Positions 5,266-56,004 are shown, numbered from the stretch's first letter. The stretch: DNA of 64,000 bases from a virus (IMGVR_UViG_3300012956_000024:2166-66165); one strand, 5' to 3'. Numbers and translations are program-made. The notes: generated from the letters alone by a model not told the origin.

Positions 5266-5679
5266 ATGTCCGCTGTTCTTGCTCGCGCCATCCAGTTCGC
5301 CCTTCGCCCGCACATCAGCGGGAATGTGATTGACCGCGCGCAGATCGCCAACGCGCTGTACCTGTTGCCGCCACCGGAAGGCGCATCCTACAACCCGTTG
5401 CTCGACCACGCCGAACAAAACACGCCGAAGGGCTACCGGTTGACGGGGGCCGCGCGCGACCGCCTCGAACGGCTGAGCCGCGCACCGGACGCCGCGGCGC
5501 GTCGCCGCCTGCTGCACTCGTTCCGCAACGAGTCGATCCGCACGTTCGAGCCCGACATCCTCATCCTCGACGAGACCTTCGAAGAGGTCGAAAACAGAAA
5601 AGGCGTCGTTACATTGGCCCAGCTGCAGGCCGCCGTCGCCAAAGTTCGCCGTCCGCTTACCGAAGAGGACATCATATGA
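5266..5679 (+). CDS. Hypothetical protein, 137 aa
   Basis: GGAG SD; ATGA overlap downstream. Confidence 0.7.
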   Translation: MSAVLARAIQFALRPHISGNVIDRAQIANALYLLPPPEGASYNPLLDHAEQNTPKGYRLTGAARDRLERLSRAPDAAARRRLLHSFRNESIRTFEPDILILDETFEEVENRKGVVTLAQLQAAVAKVRRPLTEEDII

Positions 5680-33374: not shown

Positions 33375-34943
33375 ATGGCCGATACAGCTGATCCGAACAA
33401 CGCAGTCGACCCGATCAAGCCGCAGCCACGCCGCAATTATCCGGCGGGGTACCAGTCGCAAGGCGGTTTGCCCGAGGCGTTGAATGCTGCACAGCCCCCC
33501 GCGCTCCCCGCGCCTGTCGATACGGTGCAGCGGCGCGCCAGCACAGGCATCCCGGTGGTCGATGGAGCGATGTCTGCTCTCAACAACTTGAACGCGGCAG
33601 GCGCTGACATCGTTGACGCGCCGCTGGGCGCAGTAAACCAGGGTCTGCGCGCGGCGTTCGGCGAGGGCATCCCGAAGTACGACCGCAATGTGCGCAGTCT
33701 TTTTGAAGATACGGGAGCCGTCAACGACGCTACGTTGTCGCCGGAACTGCAGCGCCAGAATGGGCTGTTCCAGCCTGCCCCCGCCCAAACACCCGCTGCG
33801 GATCTCGCACCTTCCGCACCTTCCGCGCCGATGACATTCGATCCGAGTGCTGTCATCGCTGGCCCCCAGCAATCCGATGGTTTGCCCACCGGAGTGTCGC
33901 GCCGCGGCGACGGCATTTTCGAAGGCCGCGGTGCACACGGCGAGCGTGCGTTCGCTGACTCCGGGTACGCGCCGCAGTTCGCCGGCGTCGCCGGTGCGTC
34001 GCCGGAAGCGCAGAGGGTGTACGCCTACCGCTTCCAGCAGGATCGTCCGCTAAAGAACGCGAGCGGCTACGATTTCCAGCGTGCGCGCGATGCTGAGATT
34101 CAAGCGGCCGGTGAGGACTACAAGCGATACGTCGCTGCAGGCTCGCCTCGCACGCAGGATGGTAGGGGCCTGTCGGAATACGACTTCCTCCAGCGTCGGC
34201 AGCGCAACTCACTCGAGAACTTCCTCGACTCCGAAGCGGGCGGCAGCGGTTCGCGCGCCAGTGATCGCGGTGGGCTGTTGTCGGGTGCTGGCCGGCGTGA
34301 TGGCGCGCAGGCCGATGCCATCGCAGCGAATGATGCGCTGCTGAAGACGGCGCAAGGAAAGCAGGGCATCGAGAAGGGCGACATCGAGATCAACAAGCTG
34401 GCAAACGAACGCGCGGATGCGCAGTTCGGAGAACTTTCGAAGCGATATACCGAGAACCCGGATCTCGCACGTCAGTTCGGTCCGGGGGTGTCGCCCAGCG
34501 ACGCCGCCGCAGCCGAGCTGGCCATGAACATGACGCTTTCGCAGACCGATCCGCTGTCGACGGAAGTAGGCCGTCGCGGCGTCGCTATCCTCGAGCGCAT
34601 CGCCGGACAGACCAACGCTGACCGCCCGATTTTTGCTGGGCGTGCTGGCGACTTCCCTGCGGGCTCGGCGCCGGCGGCGCTGGAGAACTACAGCGTCGGC
34701 AAAAGAGGACTCGGCGCTCGGCTGATCAATAAGCTCACCGGCGACCCGGATTTCGTACTGCAGAGCCCGGCGTTCGACAAGCGCGACGGTAAGCGCAATG
34801 TGCCGATCGATCCGAACGACCCGAACGCGGAACGATTCACGAACTACGAGACTGGGTTGCCCGGTATTCTTGGTGGACAGCGCGGGCAAGAGTTTCTTCT
34901 TCGGTACCAGGACATCGCAAAACGTCGCAACAAAAAGGAATAA
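33375..34943 (+). CDS. Putative internal virion (ejection) protein, 522 aa
   Basis: GGAG SD; precedes giant protein. Confidence 0.6.
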   Translation: MADTADPNNAVDPIKPQPRRNYPAGYQSQGGLPEALNAAQPPALPAPVDTVQRRASTGIPVVDGAMSALNNLNAAGADIVDAPLGAVNQGLRAAFGEGIPKYDRNVRSLFEDTGAVNDATLSPELQRQNGLFQPAPAQTPAADLAPSAPSAPMTFDPSAVIAGPQQSDGLPTGVSRRGDGIFEGRGAHGERAFADSGYAPQFAGVAGASPEAQRVYAYRFQQDRPLKNASGYDFQRARDAEIQAAGEDYKRYVAAGSPRTQDGRGLSEYDFLQRRQRNSLENFLDSEAGGSGSRASDRGGLLSGAGRRDGAQADAIAANDALLKTAQGKQGIEKGDIEINKLANERADAQFGELSKRYTENPDLARQFGPGVSPSDAAAAELAMNMTLSQTDPLSTEVGRRGVAILERIAGQTNADRPIFAGRAGDFPAGSAPAALENYSVGKRGLGARLINKLTGDPDFVLQSPAFDKRDGKRNVPIDPNDPNAERFTNYETGLPGILGGQRGQEFLLRYQDIAKRRNKKE

Positions 34944-34946
34944 CGC

Positions 34947-37900
34947 GTGGCCACTCAATTTGACTCGCTTATCCCTGACGACGCGAACCCCTACGTTACT
35001 GATGCGATGCGCCGTCGAGGCGCACCGATCGATACGACGTTCGTCCACAGCGACGCCCCTGATGGCAGTTTTGAAAACCAGACCGACGGGCTCACTCGCC
35101 GTCTGCGGTCTGCCGCGACAAATTTCGAGTCCTACGTGCCAGCGGTCGAAGGACTCGCGCGGCAAGTCGTCGGTGATCAGGAAGGCGCGCAGAAGGCGTA
35201 CCAAGAGTACGGCGACCTGCAGCAGCGTGCCCAGGCCATCGGCCCCGACGTGCAGACGATGGACGACGTGCGCCGCCGCGGCAGCACGCCGGAAGCCTAC
35301 GCCGAGTTCGCCGCAACGCAGGCGGTCAACGCCGTCCCTGACATCCTCGCCACCGTCGCCACGGGTGGCTTTGGTGGCGCTGTCGGCGGAACCATCGCTC
35401 GCCGCGCAGGACTGCGCGCTGCGACCGCCGCGGCCGAACGACAGGCCGCGAAAGAGGCAGCGCCGGCGCTCGCCGAAGCCGTTGTCAAAGCACAGGGCTC
35501 CGACGCGGCTGAGCGCCTGGCACGGCGTCAACTGGTTGAAGAAACGACGCAGCGCACGCTGCGCGACCGCACGCCCGAAGTGCTGGCCGCGCAGCGTGCG
35601 ACCGAGGAAGCGGCGGTGAAAGCCGGTCAGATTGTCGGCTCGACGGCAGGGCAGTACCCCGGTGTCGTCGCCGACAGCGTCGAAGCGCTGAAGAATACGG
35701 ACCAGGAAGGCGCGCTCAAGATCGGCGGTGCCGACATCGTCTCGGCCGCGTTCGGCTCGCTGCCGGCTGAGCGTTTCCTCTCACGGCTTGGCGGCGGTGC
35801 TGCGCGCCAGGTGCTCGAAGATAGCGCGCGCAAGATCCTCCCCCGCGTGGCGAAAGAGTTCGCCACGCAAGGCGCGCTCGAAGGCGGTGTCGGTGTGGGT
35901 CAGGCTGCGATCCAGCTCGCGGGTCACAAGTGGGTCGATGACAACGTCGATCTGGTCGGCCCCGAAGCGTTCGACCGCTACCTCGCCGAAGCGGTGGGCG
36001 GCTTCTTCGCCGGCGGCACGATCAGCGGTGTGCACACCGCGGGCGCCGCGGGCGTCGAGCGTTGGAAGGAAGGCGCGCAGGGCCGCGGTGAAAAGTACAA
36101 CGCGCTCAAAGAGCGCCTGGTCAAGAACATCCGCGCGGCGGGTGCTGCGGCCGAGTCCAAGCTCGGCGATATCCGTGACCGCGTACGCGCCGGTGAAACA
36201 GAAGGCGCACCGCGGCCGAAGCCGGGCGACCCGATCAACGCGGACGGCTCGCCAGCGAACGGTGCAGACTTCGTTGTTTCTCCTGACGGCACCACGGTCG
36301 CCGCGGGCGACAGCACGCGTGCGAGCGCCGCTGACTTCTTCGCACGCGCGCAGGAAGGGTTGAACCGCGCCGTCGGCGCGGCACCTGGTGTCGCTGCGAA
36401 AGCGAAAGCCGGCATCGACTCGATCATCGACCGTTTCAAAAAGACCGACGCGCAGGTGCAGAACGACGAGTCGATCGAAACTGAGAGCGACGAAGTGTCG
36501 CGTCGGACGCTCGCGAACATGGTGCGTGACTACGAGAGCGGTGAAATGCCCCCGGAGCTTCAGGGCGCCATGGGCAACCGCGCACCGAACCAGAATCCGA
36601 TCCAGTTCGAAACCAAGACCCAAGACGTACTCGCGACGATCATCCCGCGCGACCACGCGCTCTGGCAGTACCCCGACACCGCGCAGGCGATGATGCGCTC
36701 GGCCGAGAAGATCTTCACCGGCGAAGAGCGCACCGAAACCGATGACCGCCACATCGGTCTGTTGCAGTCATTGGCCCCCGACAAGGTCGCTCGATGGGAA
36801 GCGGCGAACCTTGACGCTGACGGCTACGGCGGCGCCATGAGAGTGGCGAAGCGACTCACTGAGAACCGCCGCCTCTCTGCGCGTGAGCGCGCGGCTGAAC
36901 GCGAACAGACCAACAAGCCGACCGTCGAAGTCCTCGACACACTGGGCAAGACGTTCGACGGCCAGACGGCTGTCACGCGAACTGCGCGCGTGCGCGAGCG
37001 TTCGCCGATGGCCGCCGAAGCGACCGTGCGCGGCCCTGAACCGACGTCGACGACCGAGTTCGACGCGCGCACCGCGCGCGACCCCTCGACCGCCGACATC
37101 ACCGAGACCGATCTCAACGACGCCGAAGCCATCGACCCGCGCGACTCCGACGCCGAGGTCATGGGCGGCTTCGGCAGCGGCATCAGCGAAGCCGACGCCG
37201 TCCAGGACTCGCCACTCGACAAACTGCCCAACACCGACCCGACGTCTCGTGAGTACCCGGCGCTTCAGCGCGCTGCGCGTGAAGAGCTGCTGGGCGGCCA
37301 GCCCGACCTGGAGACCGGCGGCTTCCCCGGTGGCAACGAGAGCCGCATATTCAAGGAAGGCACGAACGAGAAGCTCTACAGCGAGAAGCTCAACTCGGCG
37401 TCGACCGTCAAGACGGACAAGACCTTCCGCATCGGCGGCGTGCAGCGCGCGAAGCTGCTCGAGCTGGGCAACATGGTGCAGTACCAGCGCGCGAAAGAAC
37501 CAGGCATGGGCGCGCTCGAAGCTATCCAGCAGTCCATCGCCGATCTGAAACTTGCCGGCGTCAACGTCGACCCAAGCACGTTCAGTGAGGGGGCGGTGCG
37601 GACCATCAAAGGGTTCACGTTGAGCCGCGCGCTGGAGGAACACCGGAAGCAGCCAAGCGCGAAGACGATCTCCGAGCTGCGGACGCTGATCGACAAGTCC
37701 GCCGGGTTGTCCGATGCGGACGTCGTTGCCCGCGCACAGCAGAAGCTGCAGACCGAGACCGTCGGCAAGCTGTCTCGCGCCGATGTAGCAGCCTTGCGCA
37801 ACACAGCGACCGACGCCGACATCAAGACCAAGGCTGCCAGGGTCAGCGAGGCAGTGGACGCCGCGCGTCAACGCCCGCTGACCAGCGAAGACCACGAGAG

Positions 37901-40900
37901 TATCGGTGAGTTACAGGCGCTACAAGAAAAGTACCTCACCAACGCACAGGCCGAAGCGCTCGGCGACGCCCAGCGCAAAATGCAGCCGCTCGAAATCAAG
38001 ACTCCGGTCGGCGTTTTTTACACGGAAAACTTGGGCGACCACGCCAGCATATCGTTCCGCCCCGAAGACCTGTCGAGCAATTTAAACGCAGAAGCAGCCT
38101 ACGAAAGAGCACTCAAAGCCGGCACGACGAACGCCACGACACTCAAGGACTTCATCGCCGAAAAAGCCGACGCTCGTCCGAACGAACGCACCGAGCGGCA
38201 GAGCTTCGACCAGATCCAGTCCAACGCGGTCGAGGACATCAGCCTGCGCGAGCAGGCGCCGCGCGAAGCACCACCGCGCGAGATCGACGCTATCACCAGG
38301 GAGAAGGTGACAACGCAGCGCGCCATCGCCGACGTCAGTCTCAACACGACGTACGCCCGTGAAACTACCGGTGCGCGCAAGGCGCGTGTGGCTGCGCGCG
38401 AGAGCATCGTCAAGTCACAAGCCAAGATCGCCGAGATCGAGAACAAGCTGGACGACGCGTCGTCGCGGCGTCCGATCAGCCCCGACAAACGCGCCACGCT
38501 CGAAGCGATCGTCAGCAAAGGCAGTCGTGCGCACGCTGATGCGAAGTACGCACAAGAAGTAGCGGTCAGGTACGCGCAGAACGCGCTGGACCCTACGGCT
38601 GGCGGACCCGGGCGCGACGCCATGTCTGACGCGGAGGCGCGTGAGCACCAGGCGCTGGTAGCTAAAGCCAACGCGCTGTGGACGCCTGACGTACAGAAAA
38701 CAGACGCAGCGATAAAGGCGCTCGACAATTCACGGCCTTCGGACATAAACCCGCAGAAGCTGCAGGCCCAGCTCGCCCGCGAGAAAGACAGCGTCCGTTT
38801 TCAGGAGCGCATTGTCGCTGACGCACTGGTGGAGGCCGGTCGCAAGATCGGCCTGGCTGAACTGAAGCGGGAGCATGACAACAACCGGCTCAGCACGGAG
38901 AAGTACGGCAAGCAGCGCAAAGCGTTGGAGGAAGACGACGCCGTTGCCGAGGACTACTTCAAGCGCGCAGATGACGGCGAGTTCGACGGCCGTCCGCACG
39001 TTACCGAGGTCGCGCAAGACAAGAGCGAAGTCAAGCGTGAAGCCGACGACGTGGAAGACAAACTCAACGCTGTAGCGAGGGCGCACTTTGGCAAAGAGTG
39101 GGCGTACGCCAAAGTCGATAAAGACGGGGTCAACCCGTTCACAGGCAAACCAACGCCTTCCAAAGCCAAGATGTTGTACAAAGCGCTGTCGGCGAAACTG
39201 ACGCCGCGCGAAGCAGCGGCCGAGCGTCTGCGTCAAGCGGGCAAGCGCAAGGCGACGACGCCCGAGGCGGTCAAGGCCAAGCGTGAGCTGCGCGAGAAAT
39301 ACCTCGCCTACCCCGCCGAGCTGCGCTCGAAACTCGACCTGATCGAAGCGGCGCGTGATGTCGTCGACCAGCTGCCCTCCGGCGACCCGCTGCGCGCGGC
39401 GTACGAGAAACTGGCCAAGGCGTCGAACGTACCGATTAACGACAAGGCACCGCGCACGGGCAAACTGGACGGCGCGAAGGACGCCGCTGCGCGCGAGACC
39501 GCACGCCAGCGTAGCGAGCGCATCGCCGAGCGTGCGAAAGGTGAGCCCGAGTACATGCGTGCACGCAAACGTGCGCAGCGCATCACTCGCCGTGAAGCCG
39601 CAGCCAAAGCCGCAGCGAGCAACCCGGCGGAGAATCTGCTCGACCCTTCGACAGCGAAACCTGACGCTGACAGTAAGCAGCGCGTCAACAGCAAGGCGCT
39701 GTCCGACTCGCCGCCCGCGACGCAGGCGGAAGCGCGCGACGCCCGCCTGACTGCGCGCGAGAAAGCGGCTGCGCAAGCCAAGCGCGACGCTGAGAACAAA
39801 GGCAAACAGCGCAAGCTGCAAGAACAACTCGACGAGACGATCGACGACGGCGTCGAAGCGGCGACCAATGAAGACGGCGAGCACGACCTCAAAGCGGAAG
39901 CCAGCATGCTCAACGCGCTGCTTGAGCGCATGGGGCTTGGCGGACACCCTGTTACGGTCGAGGCGTTGCCCGAGCATCGTCGTACAGGGCCGGGCGAGCC
40001 TGGCGGCTCGTACGTTGGCGGCACGATATATATCAACCCGGCGCTGAAAGGGCCTGAGCGCATTGAAGTGCTCGCGCACGAGCTGGGGCACCACGTCATC
40101 CGTGCGTCGATCGCTGAAGCGAGCGGCGGTGAAGTGACGGCCAACGAGTTGGGCTATTTCAAGTCTGACGACGTGCTCGAGATGCTGCGCGTGTCGAACC
40201 CGGATCTGCACGCGGCGATCAAGTCCGATTTCGAATCGTGGGCCGCGAAGAACCCGGCATCGCGGCGCGTAGTCGACGCGCGCGCGTCGCGCGCTGCGTT
40301 CCACCGTGCGCGTGCGCTGCTGTCGCGCAATACGAGGTCGAAAGAGACGACCAACGACCTGTCGATCGAAAAGCAGCAGTACGCCTACTCGATGGACGAG
40401 TACATCGCTGACAACATCGCTCGCGCGCTCGCCGGCAAGCACGAGTCGCAGACCGTCATCGGCAAGTTCTTCAACGACATCGCCGCGAAACTGCGTGCGG
40501 TGTACGACGCGCTGTTCGCCAAAGGCAACGCCAAGTGGGCGCCGGCGCCGTCCGTCGACAAGTGGGTGCAGGGCCTGTTCGACGCGAACGTGCGCGACGT
40601 GTCCGAAGCCATCGGTCAGCCGGTGTCGAAGGAGACGGCGGACGCCGGCATTCGCGCGGCCGTAGAGAACGCGTTCCAAGGCCCCGTCTTCCCCGCCCGT
40701 CCGTCGAAACTCAACACCGGCGCACCGCCGCCACCGGGGCCGACGCCGGCGCAGCCCAACACACCGCCGCCGCGCGATCCGAAGAGCTTCCGCGACATGC
40801 TGCGTTTCGTGCGCGGCACGCTGCGCACCCCGGAGCGCAAGATCCTTGACCGCGTGCTCAGCCGCGGTGCGGTCGACAAGCGGCTGCAGGAGATCTACAA

Positions 40901-43586
40901 GGACAACCCCGGCGCGCTGCGTTTGCTCGACGACGCCAAGCACGGGCTCGAAGGCCGCATCGCACTCGCGTACTTCGCCTGGAAGGACGGCAAGCTCACG
41001 ACGGGGCCAGAAGCGACGAACGCGCTGTTCGACATCGACGACACGCTGCGCTCGGTTCTCAACGTGTCCAGTGATGGCGCGTACGCGCAGCGCATCTTCG
41101 ACGACATCGCCACCGGGTACATCAGCCGCGTCGAGGCGGCCGGCAAGACCTATGACATCCGCGACCTTGAAACCCGCGCTCGCGGCAAGCTCAACGCCAC
41201 GCTCAACCATTTCAGCGACATCGCTGAGAAAATCGGTGAACCGTTGTCGAAGTTCTGGGAAAGCAAGATGTCGCGGGCGTTCAACAGCGGTATCCCGGCG
41301 TACCGTCATTTCGCGTCACTCATCCAGCGCCCCGGCGGCAAGACCGGCGACGACCGCGGCTTCAATCCTAGCGTCGTGCATACGACCGCACGCTACGTGC
41401 GCCAGGCAGGCCGCGTGTTCGAAGGCTTGAGTGAGCGCGACATGCACAAGGCGCTGACCTACCTGCAGCGCGGCCCCAGCGCGAGCAAGTTTCCCGACGT
41501 CAACCGCAACGTCTCATACGCGGAGTTTGCGAAGGCTCATTTCGCGAGGGAGAAAGCGGCGCGTGCTCCTGGCGCGCGCCTCGATAAGTTCGTGCACGGC
41601 GATGTAAATGCGGCGTTCGTACGTCAGGCGAACGAGCAGGAGCTGAAAGGATTCATCGACACGCAGATAGACAAAGAACGCGGGCTACAGCGGACAATCG
41701 ACGCCATAGTAGAAGACGGCGGTGAAGCCGGCGCGCAAACAACGCTGCTGCAGCAGATCGTCGATGAACGCAAACTTGCGGAGGCGCGCCTTGAAAAACT
41801 GCCTGCTGCGCGTAAAGCCGAAAGTGAGCGCGCGGGAACGCCCGAAGGCACACGCCCTGAGATACGCGCCGCCATCGACAAGGCACGCAAGCTCATGGAT
41901 GACCTGCACGCCTACGCGACGGACGCCGGCGTCAAGCTCCCTCGTCGTTCGAACTTCTGGCCGGTGGTGCTCGATCTGCGCAACGATACGGCGAAGACGC
42001 GGCTGACCACTCTCTACAGCCAGCCGCACTTCGAAGCGCGCATCCGTGAACTGTTCGGCTCGAAGGACAAGCCGTCCGACCTCCCGATCGCTGACTTGGT
42101 CAAGAACCTCGTCGACGGCGCGACACAGGGTGAGCATGGCGCTCCGACCACGGGTGCTGGCGCGCCGAACTTCAAGTCCGCCAACTACCGGTTGAGCCAG
42201 TTCGTCTACGACCTGGGCTCGCCGGCCGACATCGACACGTTCGCTGCCCTGCAGTCCAAAGATCCGGCCGAAGTGCTCGGCCGCTACGTGGAGCCGCTGG
42301 TCAAGCGGGCTGAGTACGCGCGCCGGTTCGGCGACGACGGCGCGCGGGCCAATCGCCTGCTCGAACAGATGAAGGCCCAGGGCGCCACGGACGCCCAGGT
42401 CGGCGAAGCCCGGAACACCCTCAAGGCCGCGCTGGGCACCTACGGCGCCGAGGGCTCCCCCCTGATCGCCATGCTCTCTCCGGGGCTCTCCCAGCGCCTG
42501 GCGACCCCACGGACGCGGAGCATCATCCACGGTCTGCAGGCGTACCAGAACGCCCGTCTGTTGCCGCTGGCGACGCTCTCGAGCCTCGTCGACCCCATCG
42601 GCATCGCCGTACGCACCGGAGGCGACTTCAAGACGGCCTGGGATGGCTTCAAGCTGGGCATGAAGGCGCTGCGCGACAAAGGCACGCGCGACGACATCCA
42701 TCGCCTTCTGGAGACGCTGGGGAGCACAGAGGACATCGGCACGCTGGAAGCTCTGCAGCAGGGCTTCGGCGGGGGTGACAGCCCGTCTTCACGGAAAGTT
42801 AACGAGTTCGTGTTCAAGTGGAACGGCCTGCAGGGCTGGACGCGGGCGACGCGCTACATGGCCCTGAAGGCGTCCAACGGCTTCATGCTCAAGCACGCAG
42901 CCGGGCAGGGCGACAGCGGGCGCTACCTGCGCGAGCTGGGGCTCAAACCGGGTGACGTGCAGCCAGGCGTTGGCGGCAACGTCAAGCTCCTGACCGACGC
43001 TGAACGCGCGAGCGCTACGCCCGCCGAAGTGCGACGCGACGACCGCGTGCGCAAGGCCATGATGCAGTTCGTCGACGAGGCGATCCTGCGGCCGAACAGC
43101 CAGCAGACGCCGCTCTGGTACTCCGACCCCTACGTGGGTCTGGTCACGCAGTACAAGGCGTTCGCCTACGCGCTCTACGACCAGATCGGCGGCCGTATCG
43201 CCCGCGAGATGTCACAGGGCAACCTCAAGGTGCTGCTGCCGGCGCTGGCCTACCTGCCGGTGACGATCATGGCCGAGCTGCTGCGTGAGCTGCTGCAGTA
43301 CGGCCCGGACGGTAACCCGAGGCGCAAGTCGTGGGGCGCGGCAGAGTACACTGGCCTCGCCGTCAGCAAGCAGCTGGCCATGCGCGGCCCGAAGCTCGAG
43401 GTCCAGGCCGACATCGTCAATGACTTCAAGCAGCAGCGTGTTCCGGGCCAGTCGCAGACCGGCCCGACAATCAGCCAGGCGATCGACGTCGTTGACGGCG
43501 GCGACAACCTGCGCACCCTCGAAGCCGCGCTCCCTGCGAGCGCACTCTGGAAAAGGTGGAATGACGATGACCGACCGACAGGATGA
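34947..43586 (+). CDS. Giant internal virion/polyvalent protein with zincin-like metallopeptidase motif, 2879 aa
   Basis: IYIN...EVLAHELGHH (40077-40091) plus DEYIADNIA downstream; terminal position in late operon. Confidence 0.8.
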   Translation: MATQFDSLIPDDANPYVTDAMRRRGAPIDTTFVHSDAPDGSFENQTDGLTRRLRSAATNFESYVPAVEGLARQVVGDQEGAQKAYQEYGDLQQRAQAIGPDVQTMDDVRRRGSTPEAYAEFAATQAVNAVPDILATVATGGFGGAVGGTIARRAGLRAATAAAERQAAKEAAPALAEAVVKAQGSDAAERLARRQLVEETTQRTLRDRTPEVLAAQRATEEAAVKAGQIVGSTAGQYPGVVADSVEALKNTDQEGALKIGGADIVSAAFGSLPAERFLSRLGGGAARQVLEDSARKILPRVAKEFATQGALEGGVGVGQAAIQLAGHKWVDDNVDLVGPEAFDRYLAEAVGGFFAGGTISGVHTAGAAGVERWKEGAQGRGEKYNALKERLVKNIRAAGAAAESKLGDIRDRVRAGETEGAPRPKPGDPINADGSPANGADFVVSPDGTTVAAGDSTRASAADFFARAQEGLNRAVGAAPGVAAKAKAGIDSIIDRFKKTDAQVQNDESIETESDEVSRRTLANMVRDYESGEMPPELQGAMGNRAPNQNPIQFETKTQDVLATIIPRDHALWQYPDTAQAMMRSAEKIFTGEERTETDDRHIGLLQSLAPDKVARWEAANLDADGYGGAMRVAKRLTENRRLSARERAAEREQTNKPTVEVLDTLGKTFDGQTAVTRTARVRERSPMAAEATVRGPEPTSTTEFDARTARDPSTADITETDLNDAEAIDPRDSDAEVMGGFGSGISEADAVQDSPLDKLPNTDPTSREYPALQRAAREELLGGQPDLETGGFPGGNESRIFKEGTNEKLYSEKLNSASTVKTDKTFRIGGVQRAKLLELGNMVQYQRAKEPGMGALEAIQQSIADLKLAGVNVDPSTFSEGAVRTIKGFTLSRALEEHRKQPSAKTISELRTLIDKSAGLSDADVVARAQQKLQTETVGKLSRADVAALRNTATDADIKTKAARVSEAVDAARQRPLTSEDHESIGELQALQEKYLTNAQAEALGDAQRKMQPLEIKTPVGVFYTENLGDHASISFRPEDLSSNLNAEAAYERALKAGTTNATTLKDFIAEKADARPNERTERQSFDQIQSNAVEDISLREQAPREAPPREIDAITREKVTTQRAIADVSLNTTYARETTGARKARVAARESIVKSQAKIAEIENKLDDASSRRPISPDKRATLEAIVSKGSRAHADAKYAQEVAVRYAQNALDPTAGGPGRDAMSDAEAREHQALVAKANALWTPDVQKTDAAIKALDNSRPSDINPQKLQAQLAREKDSVRFQERIVADALVEAGRKIGLAELKREHDNNRLSTEKYGKQRKALEEDDAVAEDYFKRADDGEFDGRPHVTEVAQDKSEVKREADDVEDKLNAVARAHFGKEWAYAKVDKDGVNPFTGKPTPSKAKMLYKALSAKLTPREAAAERLRQAGKRKATTPEAVKAKRELREKYLAYPAELRSKLDLIEAARDVVDQLPSGDPLRAAYEKLAKASNVPINDKAPRTGKLDGAKDAAARETARQRSERIAERAKGEPEYMRARKRAQRITRREAAAKAAASNPAENLLDPSTAKPDADSKQRVNSKALSDSPPATQAEARDARLTAREKAAAQAKRDAENKGKQRKLQEQLDETIDDGVEAATNEDGEHDLKAEASMLNALLERMGLGGHPVTVEALPEHRRTGPGEPGGSYVGGTIYINPALKGPERIEVLAHELGHHVIRASIAEASGGEVTANELGYFKSDDVLEMLRVSNPDLHAAIKSDFESWAAKNPASRRVVDARASRAAFHRARALLSRNTRSKETTNDLSIEKQQYAYSMDEYIADNIARALAGKHESQTVIGKFFNDIAAKLRAVYDALFAKGNAKWAPAPSVDKWVQGLFDANVRDVSEAIGQPVSKETADAGIRAAVENAFQGPVFPARPSKLNTGAPPPPGPTPAQPNTPPPRDPKSFRDMLRFVRGTLRTPERKILDRVLSRGAVDKRLQEIYKDNPGALRLLDDAKHGLEGRIALAYFAWKDGKLTTGPEATNALFDIDDTLRSVLNVSSDGAYAQRIFDDIATGYISRVEAAGKTYDIRDLETRARGKLNATLNHFSDIAEKIGEPLSKFWESKMSRAFNSGIPAYRHFASLIQRPGGKTGDDRGFNPSVVHTTARYVRQAGRVFEGLSERDMHKALTYLQRGPSASKFPDVNRNVSYAEFAKAHFAREKAARAPGARLDKFVHGDVNAAFVRQANEQELKGFIDTQIDKERGLQRTIDAIVEDGGEAGAQTTLLQQIVDERKLAEARLEKLPAARKAESERAGTPEGTRPEIRAAIDKARKLMDDLHAYATDAGVKLPRRSNFWPVVLDLRNDTAKTRLTTLYSQPHFEARIRELFGSKDKPSDLPIADLVKNLVDGATQGEHGAPTTGAGAPNFKSANYRLSQFVYDLGSPADIDTFAALQSKDPAEVLGRYVEPLVKRAEYARRFGDDGARANRLLEQMKAQGATDAQVGEARNTLKAALGTYGAEGSPLIAMLSPGLSQRLATPRTRSIIHGLQAYQNARLLPLATLSSLVDPIGIAVRTGGDFKTAWDGFKLGMKALRDKGTRDDIHRLLETLGSTEDIGTLEALQQGFGGGDSPSSRKVNEFVFKWNGLQGWTRATRYMALKASNGFMLKHAAGQGDSGRYLRELGLKPGDVQPGVGGNVKLLTDAERASATPAEVRRDDRVRKAMMQFVDEAILRPNSQQTPLWYSDPYVGLVTQYKAFAYALYDQIGGRIAREMSQGNLKVLLPALAYLPVTIMAELLRELLQYGPDGNPRRKSWGAAEYTGLAVSKQLAMRGPKLEVQADIVNDFKQQRVPGQSQTGPTISQAIDVVDGGDNLRTLEAALPASALWKRWNDDDRPTG

Positions 43587-44085: not shown

Positions 44086-44118
44086 AAAAGAAAAGCCCCG
44101 CTTCGGCGGGGCTTTTTT
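44086..44118. terminator. Bidirectional terminator between convergent arms
   Basis: AAAAGCCCCGC-TTCG-GCGGGGCTTTTTT. Confidence 0.95.
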
Positions 44119-44394: not shown

Positions 44395-44645
44395 TAGTGA
44401 ATCTCCAGATCAGTGTCCAGATCTTCGACGTCGATCTCAGCGCCCCAGTAGTCGATAGCCATGTCGGCTTCATCTTCACTGATCAGTCCGTTGTTCACGG
44501 CGCGCACAGCGTTGCCTTCCAGCGTACGAATCGCGCGGGCGCCGGCGTAGAATCCGACACGCATGCTCTCAATGTCGTGCGTAGGCATTTTTTCAGCTTC
44601 GAGCCCTACCAATAGTTCGAGCCATTCATCGTAGAGCGTGCGCAT
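44394..44645 (-). CDS. Hypothetical protein, 83 aa
   Basis: TGATG overlap; FYAGA motif. Confidence 0.7.
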   Translation of the reverse strand: MRTLYDEWLELLVGLEAEKMPTHDIESMRVGFYAGARAIRTLEGNAVRAVNNGLISEDEADMAIDYWGAEIDVEDLDTDLEIH

Positions 44646-44830
44646 CAGGGCTTCGCGTTTGAATCGATGCCCTCATGGTACAACTCTTCACGCCACACTG
44701 GCACTGTCGGCGGTGCGTCGATAGTCAACGTGACCACGCCATGCGGGCGAAGACCGACAGCGATCGTGATTTTGTCGGGGCCGTTGCCGATGACGATCTT
44801 TTCTCCATCGCGTCGTTTCAAGACGAGCAT
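44645..44830 (-). CDS. csrA: Carbon storage regulator CsrA/RsmA homologue
   Basis: MLVLKRRDGEKIVIG...IDAPPTVPVWREELY compared with MLILTRRVGE...NAPKEVSVHREEIY; AAGGA SD. Confidence 0.9.
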   Translation of the reverse strand: MLVLKRRDGEKIVIGNGPDKITIAVGLRPHGVVTLTIDAPPTVPVWREELYHEGIDSNAKP

Positions 44831-45991: not shown

Positions 45992-46362
45992 GCGACCTCG
46001 AAGATGGGTATGGCCGTCGTAGCTGGTGTCCCGTTCTTCCATTGATTGGGGTTGAACTGGATGCACGCCTGTCCTTTTGGAAGGCCGACGATACCGACGA
46101 CATTGGGGCAGTCGCCGGCGTTTTCGTACCGTCGCGTCATCCAGTGAAGCTGCAGCGCCGTGTAGTTGCCGACGACGATGTTGTTGCGCGGCATCACCGG
46201 GTTGAACTTGTATTCGACCCATAGGTCGTGGCGCGGGCCGTCGTAATACTGGTCGGGCACGCCAGAGAGCGCCATCATGCTGCCGACGTTGCTCTGCTTG
46301 AACACATCGCGCAGCTGGCGGTTGACGGCGCTGCGGAAGACCGACTCGGGCTTGCGGCTCAC
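45937..46362 (-). CDS. VRR-NUC-like nuclease/resolvase
   Basis: PE..F...V, GVPD, WVEYK, Q..WM. Confidence 0.8.
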   Translation of the reverse strand: MSRKPESVFRSAVNRQLRDVFKQSNVGSMMALSGVPDQYYDGPRHDLWVEYKFNPVMPRNNIVVGNYTALQLHWMTRRYENAGDCPNVVGIVGLPKGQACIQFNPNQWKNGTPATTAIPIFEVACWIRNFCGVSSKPVHRS

Positions 46363-46526
46363 GGCGAAATGTCCTTGAGCGCGCCCCAGGCTTCGCCGAA
46401 GTCGAGTCCTTCAGTGCCGTGCCATTGCCCTTCGCAGACATCTGGCATCGCAATACCGATACCGACGAGCTGATCCATCAGTTCGTCGAGTACCTTATAC
46501 AGTCGAGCGCCTTCGTCGAGAGTCAT
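46359..46526 (-). CDS. Hypothetical protein, 55 aa
   Basis: Hand-translated MTLDEGARLYKVLDELM...; overlaps on both sides. Confidence 0.7.
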   Translation of the reverse strand: MTLDEGARLYKVLDELMDQLVGIGIAMPDVCEGQWHGTEGLDFGEAWGALKDISP

Positions 46527-46792
46527 CCTTTCGTCTCCCGCGGGTCACACCCATAACTGTCCTTCTGGCGCACCTGGCCGTCCTTGCCATGTAGCCAGAT
46601 CTCGCTGGGAACGCGGCACACGCGCCACATCTGCGTGCAGTGAATGCGCAACGGCCGCACGATGTCGCGCTGCGCAGGCTTGGAGTCGATGACCTCGCCG
46701 CCAACCTTCAAGTACCAGCGTTTGCCGATCTTGACAACGTGGTAGTTGGTGCGCGGGAAATCAGGAAGCGGCGGTGTCTGTTTCTTGGTCAT
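46523..46792 (-). CDS. DUF2188-like protein
   Basis: YHVV...W...E..LHGKDGQV..KDSYG.DP...KG. Confidence 0.8.
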   Translation of the reverse strand: MTKKQTPPLPDFPRTNYHVVKIGKRWYLKVGGEVIDSKPAQRDIVRPLRIHCTQMWRVCRVPSEIWLHGKDGQVRQKDSYGCDPRETKG

Positions 46793-46971: not shown

Positions 46972-47102
46972 ACCTATATCAAAGATGCCGCCGCTCCGAC
47001 GCTCCCTCCTACATAGTGTGAGCGTCACAACTGTTCGTCGGTTCCCGCTCTCAGCACAACCTTGTACTTCGGATGTGCAACGACGACACCTTTGATATAG
47101 GT
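46972..47102 (-). ncRNA. Putative structured RNA / long-stem 5' leader
   Basis: 23-bp closing stem whose 4 non-WC pairs are all G-U on minus strand; internal hairpins. Confidence 0.6.
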
Positions 47103-47104
47103 CC

Positions 47105-47144
47105 AGAAAGTAAAACGGCCCCACCGGTTAGGGCGGGGCCGTAT
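47105..47144 (-). terminator. Rho-independent terminator
   Basis: ACGGCCCC/GGGGCCGT stem then TTTTACTTTC. Confidence 0.8.
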
Positions 47145-47146
47145 TG

Positions 47147-47260
47147 AAAAAACCGGGCGGGGCAGCTACGGGGAGCTGAATCCCGTTTCTCGTCTGCCCA
47201 CCTACTCTACCGACACGGGATTCACAGCTCCCACACGATCAATAGAGGGCTTGCCCGGCC
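47147..47260 (-). ncRNA. Putative structured RNA, ~114 nt, ending in U6
   Basis: GGCCGGGC/GCCCGGUU outer stem; GGGAGCUG(UG)AAUCCCGU / ACGGGAUUCAGCUCCC inner stem. Confidence 0.6.
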
Positions 47261-47262
47261 TG

Positions 47263-47523
47263 TTACTTCGCCAGTGTGCCCGCCAGCCGGAATCCGAGCA
47301 GCTTCCACACTCCATCAACTGCCTGCTCACGTGCGAGGCGGTTACCGATCTCGGCATCGAAGTTCTCGATGCTGACGCACGCCGACAAACCTTCGACCGT
47401 GAAACCGTTCTTCAGCGTGAGCTGGCAGACAGTAGTGCGGCCGTTGGGCAACACGGTGTACGTCGCGCGGACGATCTCAGCGTCGACGTCATCCTGCGTG
47501 ACGCGTGGAGCGCCGCCGCTCAT
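47263..47523 (-). CDS. N4 Gp49/Sf6 Gp66 family protein
   Basis: VT...V...I.......TTVCQLTLKNGFTVEG.SACVS.ENFDAEIG..LA. Confidence 0.9.
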   Translation of the reverse strand: MSGGAPRVTQDDVDAEIVRATYTVLPNGRTTVCQLTLKNGFTVEGLSACVSIENFDAEIGNRLAREQAVDGVWKLLGFRLAGTLAK

Positions 47524-48008
47524 GCCGCACCCAGACGATCGGTCTCGATCTTGAGCTTGGCAGCGACGGCTGCGTCGTACGCCGCGGCCGTCTTGGCTGC
47601 CGTGGCCTTGAGCTTCGGCGTGGCCTTGTCGAGATCCTTGAGCGTGCGTTCGGCGTTCTTCAGCGCGTCCTTGGCGAGCTTCACGGCCGACTTCTGGTCG
47701 GCCTTGACGGCCAGCGGACGCGCTTCGACCTGGCCCAACGTCTTCTTCTTCGAGCTGACGAGCTTGTCGGCGTCCTTGACGAGCTTCTGGCGCGCCTTGA
47801 GCGCCGTGGCGGCACCGCTCTTGGCCGTCTTGGTGATCTTGACGGCCTCGCGAGCCGCGGCACGCTGCTGCGTGAGCGTCAGGGGCGGTGCCTTGCCCTT
47901 GCGGACAGGGGCGGCGACGGTGGGAGCAGGGGCGGCGACAGGGGCAGCGGCCGTACGACCGCGACCACCCGGTTTGACCTTGCTGATGGCTGACTGTGCT
48001 TCGGGCAT
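47520..48008 (-). CDS. Lys/Ala-rich basic protein (histone-H1-like composition)
   Basis: Composition; GGAG SD. Confidence 0.7.
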   Translation of the reverse strand: MPEAQSAISKVKPGGRGRTAAAPVAAPAPTVAAPVRKGKAPPLTLTQQRAAAREAVKITKTAKSGAATALKARQKLVKDADKLVSSKKKTLGQVEARPLAVKADQKSAVKLAKDALKNAERTLKDLDKATPKLKATAAKTAAAYDAAVAAKLKIETDRLGAA

Positions 48009-52362: not shown

Positions 52363-52880
52363 TTTTCTTGACTCCGTCGTTCGAAACGGTTGTCCCACGC
52401 CTCGCGTAGGGCGACATGATGTTCAGGCGCTACGCACTCAAGAAACCCCGTGTCTTCGAGGGAGCGGCCGGAGCCTTGAACGAACATTTCATCGGCGTCC
52501 GCGAGGGTTACGCACATCTCCCAGACATCCCCCCTTATATACGCGTCGTAGAGTTCGAGTTCGCGCCGCATGTAGGCTTCCGCGCGTTCGCGGTCGCCTG
52601 CAAATGCGGTCTCGAAGGCTTCTTGCGTGATGTAATGCTCGCCCAGCTGCCCTGAATCCCACGGGCATGAAAACGGGGAGTGGCTGATCGTGAGGCCGCT
52701 GTGGTCGTACATGTATATCGGCCACGCGATAGCAGCGTCTTTGGGCGGACGCTCGGCGTCCTTGTCACCGAGCGTATACCGGCGATGCGCGCACACCATC
52801 ACGCTGGTGTCGTCGAACTGCCGCGGGTCTTCAGGATCGGGGTCCGTGTAGATTTGAATGCGTACGGTTTGCTCGCTCAT
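52341..52880 (-). CDS. Conserved phage protein (YMYDHSG...CPWDSGQ.G)
   Basis: Start re-called at 52880, ATGA overlap. Confidence 0.75.
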   Translation of the reverse strand: MSEQTVRIQIYTDPDPEDPRQFDDTSVMVCAHRRYTLGDKDAERPPKDAAIAWPIYMYDHSGLTISHSPFSCPWDSGQLGEHYITQEAFETAFAGDRERAEAYMRRELELYDAYIRGDVWEMCVTLADADEMFVQGSGRSLEDTGFLECVAPEHHVALREAWDNRFERRSQEKWLTGTA

Positions 52881-53896
52881 GCGATCATCTCCAGCGCACG
52901 GCTCCATGCCCGCTGCTTGATCTGCTCGCCCTTGCCGAACCACGCGCTGTCGAGGCGGTTGCCTTGATTGCGCGCAGGCATCTTGTGATCGACGTCGAAC
53001 GTGACTGCGTTGACCAGGCCCCACAGCAAGCCCTTGGCCGAGGCCATGTGTGCGCCGGGCGAATTGAAAAGCGCTTCGGTCATACGCTTCTCCATGAATT
53101 TCTCCAGCGTCTTCGCTGTAGCCTCGTCTTCCTGGGCTTCCTTGATCTCGTCGACCGTGCTCAGGCTGTAGTAGGCATTGAGGAAGAATTTTACGGCTTC
53201 GTCCTGCGAGACGACGCGTTCGCTCATGGCCTGTGCGCGGCTGGTGAAGGCAGACCACGCGTCGCCCACTTCGAGGTCGATCTTGATGGCGTCCGCGTTG
53301 AACTTCGTGCTGTGCGGCACGACCACGTTGGCCTTGCCGTTGTTGGCCGCGAAGGTGAGCGTGTTGTTGCACACCACACGTATCGAGGTGAACCGTGCCT
53401 GCGTCGACATCGTGCCGTCGTAGGAGGTGGCCAGCAGCAGGTATCCCTTGACCTTGTCTTCGCCGCGCAGCGTGACGGCGTTCTTGGTGTTGGCCAGCGC
53501 CCAGATCTTCTTGCCGTCCTTGAGCGCGCCGGCCGTTTCCAGCTCGAAGCCGTGGCGCTCGACCAGGTCGCGGTAAAATTCGATGATGTCCCTGGGTTGG
53601 ACGATCTGGTAGCGCGGGCTGACGATCGAGAGCACGTCGCCGGTGTCGCTGCGGTAGAGCACGTCGTGGTTCTTGGATTGCGCGAGCAGGAGGTCTTCGA
53701 GCTTTCCGTCGCCGATCGGATCGCGCGCGAACTGCACGCCTGCGCGCTTGGCCGTCCAGTCGAGTCCGGCTTCGGTCTGCCACGTTTCGAGGGGTGCTCC
53801 GGGTGTGAGCACTTGGCCCAAGCCGTGCCAGGGTGTCTGGCCGGTGTAGGCCATTGCGTTGCGGCCGTCGGCCGCGGTAGCGAGTTCATGTGCCAC
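52877..53896 (-). CDS. DUF932 / LGT_TIGR03299-like protein
   Basis: MAYTGQTPWHGLG, YQIVQP, ETAGALKDGKKIWALA, TSIRVVCNNT, S.WFG.G...K. Confidence 0.9.
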   Translation of the reverse strand: MAHELATAADGRNAMAYTGQTPWHGLGQVLTPGAPLETWQTEAGLDWTAKRAGVQFARDPIGDGKLEDLLLAQSKNHDVLYRSDTGDVLSIVSPRYQIVQPRDIIEFYRDLVERHGFELETAGALKDGKKIWALANTKNAVTLRGEDKVKGYLLLATSYDGTMSTQARFTSIRVVCNNTLTFAANNGKANVVVPHSTKFNADAIKIDLEVGDAWSAFTSRAQAMSERVVSQDEAVKFFLNAYYSLSTVDEIKEAQEDEATAKTLEKFMEKRMTEALFNSPGAHMASAKGLLWGLVNAVTFDVDHKMPARNQGNRLDSAWFGKGEQIKQRAWSRALEMIA

Positions 53897-54110
53897 TGAT
53901 CTTCTCCTGATTGATGTCGCGTTCGACGGCGACGATGCACTTTTCACGTAGTCGATGCGGGTCTGTATCGTCGGGCAAATATCCGAGAATGCGAAACGCA
54001 TAGTCGACTTGCTCGTCGACAGAAAATGGTTTGCTGTCGTTTAGATCGCGAATATGACTCGCTACATTGACGACAGCGGTGACGGTGTGGAGCGATTTGG
54101 GGATACACAT
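53886..54110 (-). CDS. Hypothetical protein, 74 aa
   Basis: ORF track. Confidence 0.55.
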   Translation of the reverse strand: MCIPKSLHTVTAVVNVASHIRDLNDSKPFSVDEQVDYAFRILGYLPDDTDPHRLREKCIVAVERDINQEKISGT

Positions 54111-55027: not shown

Positions 55028-55474
55028 TCATACTCCTTTCGGTTGGTTGTCTTCCCAGCGGTAATTCACTGGATCGGACGATGGGAATGCGCGTGTTGCA
55101 GTAACGAGGAGCCAGCGCGACATAAGGTTTTTTGCGTTGGCTTCGGCCTCTTCCTTGGTCGCGAAGCGAAGCGCGTTGCTTGACCATTTGTCGCCGTTGC
55201 CGGCCGTTTGCACTTCTGGCTTCCAGCTCACGACACGGATCATCGTGTTGCCGTTGATGTCCGTCTTGCACTCCGGGCAGTGGTACGGCCACTCAGGTTG
55301 CTGCGGAGACGACGAGTCCCACAACATATTGCTGCCGTCGTGAAACTCGGGTTCGAGATCGCCGTCAACTTCGTTGAACCCCGCGATTTTGATAACGGCG
55401 ATAACCGTGTCGATCTGATTCAGTTCGGTGTTGCCGCAGTTCGGACATGCGCAGGTGATGAGATCGTCACTCAC
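55028..55474 (-). CDS. Zn-ribbon-containing hypothetical protein
   Basis: CPNC...CPEC; GTGA overlap. Confidence 0.7.
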   Translation of the reverse strand: MSDDLITCACPNCGNTELNQIDTVIAVIKIAGFNEVDGDLEPEFHDGSNMLWDSSSPQQPEWPYHCPECKTDINGNTMIRVVSWKPEVQTAGNGDKWSSNALRFATKEEAEANAKNLMSRWLLVTATRAFPSSDPVNYRWEDNQPKGV

Positions 55475-56004
55475 AACGTGAGCCCCAAGTGCTTGACGAC
55501 CGCCTGCAGGTACTCGGCCTGATAGATCGCGTCGTCGAGCGCGTTGTGATGTGTGCCTTTGCGAACGGGCTCTACGAAATCCCGCGTCTTGCCGAGGTTC
55601 TTGAGCGTGCGGAAGCAGCGGTTGCGGCTGTAGCGCCAGCCCTGAAGGTCGAAAGACTTGATTGCGCTGGCGAGAATGGCGTTGTCGAAGTCCGAACCGT
55701 TGCCCCACACGCCTTCAGCGTTGGTGCAGAACGCGCCGAAGTTGCTCAGTGCGGTTACGGGAGCGACGGCGTGTACGTTGAACACGTTGCGCGCTTCGGG
55801 TGCTTGCTGCATCCACCACTTGAGCGTGTCCGCGCTGACTGTTCGGCCGACATCGATCTGTGGCTGCAGGCGCAGGACTTCATACAGTGTGTCGCTCGGG
55901 AAGATCGGGCCTTCTTTGTTCGGATCGAACAGAACCGCGCCGATCGAGACGACGACAGCAGTGGCGGTGGTGTCAAGTGTTTCGATGTCTACCATGCAGT
56001 GCAT
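55471..56004 (-). CDS. DEDD 3'-5' exonuclease/exoribonuclease
   Basis: MVDIETL, WGNGSDFDN.IL, HNALDDA.YQA. Confidence 0.9.
   Translation of the reverse strand: MHCMVDIETLDTTATAVVVSIGAVLFDPNKEGPIFPSDTLYEVLRLQPQIDVGRTVSADTLKWWMQQAPEARNVFNVHAVAPVTALSNFGAFCTNAEGVWGNGSDFDNAILASAIKSFDLQGWRYSRNRCFRTLKNLGKTRDFVEPVRKGTHHNALDDAIYQAEYLQAVVKHLGLTL

Follow-up and report, generated by a model that had tools for sequence, protein, structure and literature searches.

A candidate family of structured RNAs with an invariant core beside a terminator of an uncultured sludge podophage

The locus and its genomic setting

The stretch of DNA analysed here (the window, 64,000 nucleotides) spans bases 2166–66165 of a 66,165-bp IMG/VR virus record, the source of which is an uncultured sludge podophage of 66 kb; sequencing runs carrying this region come from activated-sludge and wastewater metagenomes. 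The genome encodes primase, helicase, exonuclease, family A DNA polymerase, terminase, portal, and major head proteins, and the nearest cultured DNA polymerases, those of Pseudomonas phages KPP25 and phiR18, share 32% identity with its own. An N4-like identity was considered and dropped in view of this low value and of a 2879-aa protein at the end of the structural arm (34947–43586, plus strand), for which Pfam offers no match. The replication arm also encodes a Rv2179c-like 3′–5′ exoribonuclease (2.2e-41) and a DUF932 protein (3.4e-56), at 55471–56004 and 52877–54001, respectively, both on the minus strand.

On the minus-strand arm running from 64000 to 44100, only two strong intrinsic terminators are present, T1 and T2. 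Between them lies a distal operon of around ten small genes, which include a GP88-family protein and a homologue of CsrA. The 131-nt element described here occupies the space between T1 and the first of these genes, beginning 3 nt past the U-rich tail of T1 and ending 6 nt ahead of an AGGAG motif. Its coordinates and strand, read from the sequence, agree with those of the preliminary description, as does the Shine–Dalgarno sequence of the next gene, placed just 3′ of the closing stem.

47115–47142, minus strand: terminator T1, with an 11-bp stem (nine G-C pairs), a 6-nt loop, and a U-rich tail GUUUUACUUUCU at 47116–47105 (terminator scan)
46972–47102, minus strand: the whole element in its type A form, 131 nt, a three-way junction closed by helix P1
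46952–46965, minus strand: AGGAG (46965–46961) and ATG (46954–46952) of the first distal-operon gene, which encodes 49 aa (46954–46805)
44645–44830, minus strand: CsrA homologue of 61 aa, the eighth operon gene after the element (Pfam CsrA, 3.5e-14, 52.9 bits)
44091–44116, minus strand: terminator T2, at the end of the distal operon (terminator scan)

A TACTTT hexamer upstream of the stem had been proposed as a −10 box. The hexamer does exist (47112–47107), but it lies inside the U-tract of T1 and has no accompanying −35; it is also present in relatives that do not carry the element. In two close relatives (L026 and L027), it turns into a plain U-run, and the supposed −10 is thus the tail of the terminator. 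No sigma-70-like promoter was seen between T1 and the distal operon. A 57-aa open reading frame across this region (47124–46951) was rejected, as its GTG falls within the T1 stem and a 1-nt deletion in L026 shifts that start out of frame.

Upstream of T1, the window carries a gene of the gp49/Sf6 gene 66 family (PF13876; 86 aa, 47523–47263, minus strand). A 418-aa reading frame ending at the same point (48519–47263, minus strand) is a GC-rich artefact, the last 86 codons alone constituting the real gp49/66-type gene. Metatranscriptome contigs from three RNA runs, examined together with one DNA run, cover 47201–47525 only, which corresponds to this upstream gene. In relatives, the same slot is occupied by a 76–77-aa protein with an Acb2/Tad1 hairpin domain (PF24729; L022:5311–5544, L032:3623–3856, L034:2275–2505, and L036:3519–3749), presumably a sponge of the cyclic-nucleotide type.

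T1 itself has homologues at the same place in six other contigs (L008, L030, L032, L034, L035, and L036). Its position, recognisable from GGCCC...GGGC followed by a U-tract, is kept across lineages whose DNA polymerases are only around 50% identical (L008:12430–12475, L030:6665–6712, L032:3886–3945, and L036:3765–3815). The stretch from the stop of the sponge gene to T1 is a variable slot: in the window, it holds a 114-nt rod-like hairpin (47147–47260, minus strand), in L034 an unrelated sequence of around 200 nt (2510–2700), in L022 another sequence (5545–5640), in L035 and L043 the type B form of the element, and in L032 and L036 almost nothing. In sample SRR18390467, contig L041 ends exactly at the stop codon of the sponge gene and contig L035 begins 30 nt before that stop; these ends may reflect coexisting slot variants in one sample or an assembly break at a structured region. 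Towards the far end of the accessory operon, a Sequestin-domain protein (PF21825) is encoded in the type B phage and related phages (L034:6027–6221, L035:3671–3865, and L036:7065–7262) and a DUF3268 zinc-finger protein in L022, L026, and L032.

Fold, conservation, and covariation of the element

The closing stem had been described as 23 bp with four G-U pairs, and this holds: 47102–47080 pairs with 46994–46972 through 19 Watson–Crick and four G-U pairs with no other mismatch. A 24th pair (U47079–A46995) can be read from the sequence, and three further pairs (G.U, G-C, and U.G) could extend the type A stem outwards. No longer inverted repeat exists in the 64-kb window. The 131-nt minus-strand RNA folds at −60.7 kcal/mol (z −6.2), a stability equalled by none of 200 shuffles, against −42.9 kcal/mol (z −4.0) for the opposite, plus strand. 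This signal is confined to the closing stem; the 85-nt interior taken alone (z −0.7) folds no better than shuffled sequence. The parts of the element in the fold common to its two known forms, derived below, are as follows.

47079–47102, minus strand: 5′ strand of P1, 24 nt, pairing with 46995–46972 (sequence reading)
47054–47078, minus strand: P2 hairpin, with an 8-bp stem, one U.U mismatch, and a 9-nt loop GAAGUACAA
47042–47053, minus strand: junction strand J2/3, UGAGAGCGGGAA, 12 nt, identical at 12 of 12 positions between types A and B
47036–47041, minus strand: 5′ strand of P3, CCGACG, pairing with 47001–46996
47002–47035, minus strand: P3 loop, 34 nt, conserved in its 5′ portion (AACAGUUGUGACGCUCAC) and its 3′ portion (GAGGGAG) and variable in the middle
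46996–47001, minus strand: 3′ strand of P3, CGUCGG (covariation between types A and B)
46972–46995, minus strand: 3′ strand of P1, 24 nt (sequence reading and comparison of types A and B)

Close relatives were fetched through the 49-aa and a 162-aa neighbouring protein, yielding six contigs (L022–L027) from at least five samples. All six carry the element, unchanged except at one base pair. The only two substitutions within the 131 nt of type A are the two partners of pair 47098/46976, which is A-U in the window, C-G in L022, L023, L026, and L027, and a C.U intermediate in L025; a sludge DNA contig shows the same change on the 3′ side. The block of 186 nt comprising T1, the element, and the ribosome-binding site (47142–46957) is 98.9% identical in L022, in which the neighbouring genes are 94%, 94%, 77%, 86%, 78%, and 81% identical. 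The identity among type A copies could reflect recent recombination of the block instead of constraint.

A covariance model built from type A (R1) found a diverged homologue, type B, at L035:36–140 (35.4 bits, E 8e-8). An identical type B sequence is present in L043, a 45.6-kb contig from another sample, which was obtained by an exact-protein look-up in which 13 contigs were read and 10 more similar places were not taken in. Type B starts 5 nt past the stop of the Acb2-like gene and leaves 7 nt between its end and T1; it thus lies on the opposite side of the terminator from type A, within a 3′ UTR.

Both types share a common fold, a three-way junction of helices P1, P2, and P3, which in type A lies 1.2 kcal/mol above the minimum free energy. 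P1 is longer in type A (24 bp) than in type B (13 bp), and comparison of its inner 13 bp with P1 of type B shows seven double and four single changes that preserve pairing. P2 (9 bp in type B) differs by three compensatory pairs; only five of its 16 stem positions are identical, and pairing is kept although stem and loop sequence are not. P3 reads CCGACG/CGUCGG in type A and CCAGCG/CGCUGG in type B, with two adjacent compensatory pairs and complete pairing in both. The stems of P1 and P2 are only 31%–38% identical between the types. The unpaired parts show the reverse: besides J2/3, the P3 loop is identical at 25 of 34 positions, 17 of them among the first 18, and type B lacks 4 nt in the middle of the loop (loop length 30–34 nt).

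In total, 13 pairs are changed on both sides between the types, compared with 3.5 ± 1.6 in shuffles (0 of 500 reaching this number) and 0–3 in slid controls, a covariation that is drawn from two independent lineages only. The helices of both types contain seven G-U pairs and no A-C pair, which indicates that selection has acted on the fold of the sense strand. The earlier suggestion that mismatches restricted to G-U favour selection at the RNA level is thereby upheld, together with pair 47098/46976, and the covariation in relatives for which it called has been found both in that pair of type A and in the 13 pairs that separate the types. A fold that is conserved and covaries in this way points to a selected RNA structure, as opposed to a miniature inverted-repeat transposable element (MITE), a promoter, or a small gene.

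Among the inner hairpins proposed previously, GCAC/GUGC corresponds to P2 and gains the support of covariation; the other two fall away, with type B losing one pair of CGG-GAA-CCG and two of GACGCUC/GAGCGUC. The latter is replaced by the covarying helix CCGACG/CGUCGG, i.e., P3. Sequence complementarity also suggests that J2/3 (UGAGAGC) may form a pseudoknot with GCUCACA in the P3 loop (47023–47017; GCUCAC(A/G) across types), whereby six of seven pairs form and the only variable pair stays paired, changing from U-A to U.G.

Distribution of the element and its boundaries

The cassette site is the gap between the Acb2-like sponge gene and the distal accessory operon, and the cassette always abuts T1, 3′ of it in the clade of the window and 5′ of it in type B. 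Five more distant lineages, found through a 267-aa and a 141-aa protein, are without the element (L008, L030, L032, L034, and L036), and in these, the U-tract of T1 directly joins the ribosome-binding site and start codon. The junction in L032, ...UUUUACUUUCAG-CCUAU-GGAGAAC..., looks like an empty site. The distribution of the element is hence insertion-like, and the direct joining of T1 to the ribosome-binding site in five lineages indicates that the junction works without it. A single copy is present in the 66-kb genome.

Mosaic changes begin at the edges of the block. In L022, a different sequence stands in place of the gp49 gene and of the stretch immediately before T1, and in L022, L026, and L027, the ribosome-binding site of the element serves a different gene, encoding 55 aa (located ahead of the 49-aa gene at L022:5830–5997 and L026:3143–3310). 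The presence of different genes after the same ribosome-binding site argues that the block is a unit at whose borders such changes occur. Elsewhere in the operon, L023 and L025 do not carry the 55-aa gene found in the window at 46359–46526; the same skip, of 169 nt (46362 to 46532), is seen in a sludge DNA contig. In L026 and L027, around five positions are changed in the spacer that separates T1 from the stem.

This pattern raises the possibility of an element that acts as DNA and whose RNA fold is a by-product; a MITE-like insertion, a recombination linker, and a palindrome bound by a protein would all be of this kind. Such an element would account for the empty site in relatives, for the terminal inverted repeats (arms of 23–24 bp), and for gene gain and replacement starting exactly at the block borders, as they do at PeSL cassettes (PMC2839356); template switching at a quasi-palindrome could, moreover, mimic compensatory change. 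It nevertheless appears very unlikely. The phage holds only one copy; dispersed copies with conserved ends, as expected of a MITE, were not found, and the arms are without a match in 185,579 species genomes, IMG/VR, and JGI metagenomes; the flanks (CUGG and UCGAAC) contain no direct repeat and hence no target-site duplication. The arms of types A and B differ and yet pair, the internal helices P2 and P3 covary as well, and the bias towards G-U over A-C pairs is that of an RNA.

Wider searches returned the same two types. Across the whole window and eight related loci, the Infernal search of Rfam that had been recommended gave no match at gathering score, and at E values up to 10, the element region and type B gave sub-threshold matches on the terminator only. 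ARAGORN detected no tRNA or tmRNA. Searches by blastn with the element and its core against 50,697 phage records found nothing, and patterns of the arms and of the core had 0 matches in viral contigs (IMG/VR), genome contigs (185,579 species genomes), and metagenome contigs (JGI). Models R1 and R2 on at least 30 related loci recovered types A and B only, and R2 on five whole related virus records gave no match. A relaxed core pattern, GAGAGCGGGAA-N10-40-GACGCTCAC, did yield 15 IMG/VR matches (L045–L059); all are coding, falling in a conserved coding region common to around eleven 45-kb phage contigs, and none fits model R2, so that they are regarded as false positives. Within the window, antisense targets of the conserved core were none beyond chance.

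Possible roles and comparison with known systems

From the comparison of sequences, the element is probably the type A member of a small family of phage structured RNAs with an invariant core. The family appears to be undescribed and, so far, comprises two lineages. Stems that are randomised but compensated, an unpaired core that does not vary, and independence of position relative to T1 together suggest a self-contained module with a sequence-specific job, and some 40 invariant unpaired bases go beyond the needs of a plain processing hairpin. Occurrence on either side of T1 likewise fits such a module better than the leader of one gene. The earlier idea of a regulatory leader tied to the adjacent ribosome-binding site is weakened accordingly, type B being located across the terminator in a 3′ UTR.

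The favoured reading, tentatively given a probability of around 0.4, combines polycistronic transcription, entry of RNase III at P1, and binding of a partner by the core. The element would be made within a polycistronic message, which for type A would depend on read-through of T1, given that this terminator looks strong and that the interval from it to the element contains no sigma-70-like promoter. Stacked on P2 or P3, the long helix P1 would then serve as a substrate for host RNase III, and cleavage would excise a compact core RNA of around 85–110 nt. In type A, the same cut would split the distal-operon message from the upstream message around 10 nt before the ribosome-binding site. The invariant unpaired core is presumed to bind its partner, most likely a protein, in a sequence-specific manner. 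RNase III accepts helices of around two turns or more as substrates, examples being the T7 R sites and the lambda N leader. By this measure (a coaxial helix of at least 20 bp), the length of P1 in type A, 24 bp without interruption, is plausible as an RNase III entry site; the 13-bp P1 of type B would be too short unless stacked on its 9-bp P2.

A simpler account holds that the long helix alone matters, as an RNase III site or a 5′ stabiliser. It would determine the level of the distal operon or its translation in the manner of the T7 R sites and the lambda N hairpin, with the interior as filler. The concentration of all thermodynamic signal in P1 fits this account, as does the end of the helix just 6 nt short of AGGAG; in L026, an extended stem even pairs the U-tract of T1 with the ribosome-binding region. 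Addition of the element to a junction that functions without it in five lineages would also suit a modulating role. A filler interior would not, however, be expected to keep an invariant unpaired core between types whose stems are randomised, and type B lies upstream of T1, apart from any ribosome-binding site. Nor is there sequence or structure homology to the lambda N leader: with filters off, the best score of R1 on lambda 34900–35700 was 3.3 bits (E 0.57). A plain processing hairpin is therefore possible, albeit on the unlikely side.

Control in cis of read-through at T1 or T2 into the accessory operon, by an antitermination RNA resembling put or EAR or by a ligand- or protein-sensing switch, would explain why the element is invariably adjacent to T1, 7 nt ahead of it in type B and 3 nt past its tail in type A, and why no promoter is seen for the distal operon. 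Eight of nine bases of J2/3 are complementary to the 5′ arm of T1 (−14.0 and −12.2 kcal/mol), and a conserved core with covarying stems is as found in RNAs that bind RNA polymerase or ligands. The type A element is, however, transcribed after T1, which places that terminator out of its reach, and a G-rich strand may match a C-rich one by chance. Riboswitches are marked by a short P1 that competes with an expression platform. The order of element then terminator in type B resembles that of a riboswitch. A P1 of 24 bp, as in type A, cannot switch, and no antiterminator, riboswitch, or aptamer of Rfam matches. Read-through control is, on balance, improbable.

The three-way junction, its invariant junction nucleotides, the possible pseudoknot, and the freely covarying stems are also what an undescribed self-cleaving ribozyme that cuts the polycistronic transcript might display, and an intergenic location in phages independent of position would suit one. 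The core CUGAGAG...CGAAC has a superficial likeness to that of the hammerhead (CUGANGA...GAAA). The hammerhead reading was rejected, given that there is no GA after N7 and no A15.1, that the GA-to-AG swap is compensated in P3 and not in helix II, and that the junction nucleotides are all on one strand. With no match to any known ribozyme family even at E 10, and with an atypical closing helix of 24 bp, self-cleavage is hardly to be expected.

A further candidate role is linked to CsrA, either as a decoy for host CsrA/RsmA or as an operator for the CsrA that the phage encodes in the same operon. Aligned with solved CsrA chains, the phage protein keeps the N-terminal ML(V/I)L.RR.GE and the C-terminal REE(L/I)Y motifs. 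It is retained in most of the related contigs examined (L022, L024–L026, and L034–L036), and a tblastn search for it in 50,697 phage records came back empty at E 1e-3. The occurrence of csrA genes in phages has been described (PMC7366521), and knock-down of one shrinks plaques (PMC11879866). CsrA homologues lie downstream of the element in both type A and type B phages, and three GGA motifs, one as AGGGA, occupy kept positions in unpaired or junction regions. The four GGA motifs noted at the outset are indeed present in type A, but do not amount to an enrichment (4 compared with 3.0 ± 1.3 in dinucleotide shuffles, p 0.34), and only one ANGGA occurs. The P2 loop GUACAAGGUUGU, which resembles the CsrA consensus, contains GGU and not GGA, and is not conserved in type B. 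L034 and L036 encode CsrA without having the element, which is also absent from L032, where no CsrA is among the matches listed; no CsrB/Rsm family of Rfam matches at gathering score or at E values up to 10. The proposal of a CsrA decoy thus loses ground, and a CsrA-linked function of either kind is doubtful.

Returning to the favoured module, its core (UGAGAGCGGGAA with AACAGUNGUGACGCUCAC...GAGGGA, possibly pseudoknotted) might represent a new functional class of RNA beside anti-defence genes, be it a self-cleaving ribozyme, an RNA polymerase-binding antiterminator, or a decoy for a protein of the host, for example a defence sensor or CsrA/RsmA. This is speculative and, as a whole, rather unlikely. 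Hairpins between phage genes are usually written off as terminators or processing sites. The present element bears the signature of a specific functional RNA, that is, randomised but compensated stems around some 40 invariant unpaired bases, and it moves as a unit, inserted on either side of one conserved terminator in an accessory region where an Acb2-like nucleotide-sponge gene and a phage CsrA are also found. Should a partner or activity be found, the poorly understood accessory or anti-defence modules of uncultured phages would gain an RNA component, and there would be a tangible example of a non-coding RNA cassette passed horizontally from phage to phage. With few and compact members (105–131 nt), the family lends itself easily to in vitro testing.

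Four known systems invite comparison. CsrB, RsmY, and RsmZ are, like the element, structured non-coding RNAs with unpaired GGA motifs in genomes that encode a CsrA-family protein; unlike them, the element has only four GGA motifs, one of them within ANGGA, has no Rfam match, and, in type A, is without a promoter or terminator of its own. Like the RNase III sites of T7 (R0.3–R18.5) and the lambda hairpin that follows nutL and precedes the N ribosome-binding site, the element would put a long double-stranded helix into a polycistronic phage message; in type A, a ribosome-binding site follows directly, and the effect to be expected is one on message separation, stability, or translation. In contrast to those sites, the helix here closes a three-way junction with an invariant unpaired core, the module also occurs in a 3′ UTR, and cleavage is putative.

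MITEs of the Correia and ERIC type resemble the element in size (around 100–160 bp), terminal inverted repeats, and location in intergenic spacers next to genes. The element differs in being single-copy, with no target duplication and no dispersed copies in the collections scanned, and reverses the MITE pattern, as its arms are unconserved but compensated and its interior is conserved. Co-transcribed Correia elements are reported to form hairpins that are bound or cut by RNase III (PMC2649163).

In T4-type phages, PeSLs serve as mobile regulatory cassettes through which modules are shuffled (Arbiol et al. 2010, PMC2839356). As in PeSLs, a conserved intergenic block here contains a terminator stem-loop, and gene gain, loss, and replacement among related phages begin and end there (PMC2839356), mosaic borders coinciding with the block. 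PeSLs differ in being multi-copy and in combining a strong sigma-70 promoter with the stem-loop, whereas the present block is found once, has a terminator but no recognisable promoter, and contains an additional structured RNA of 131 nt. Although the defining feature of each system is thus missing here, the element would, by analogy, work most like the RNase III-sensitive structures of phages and co-transcribed Correia elements, and the block in which it resides most like a PeSL.
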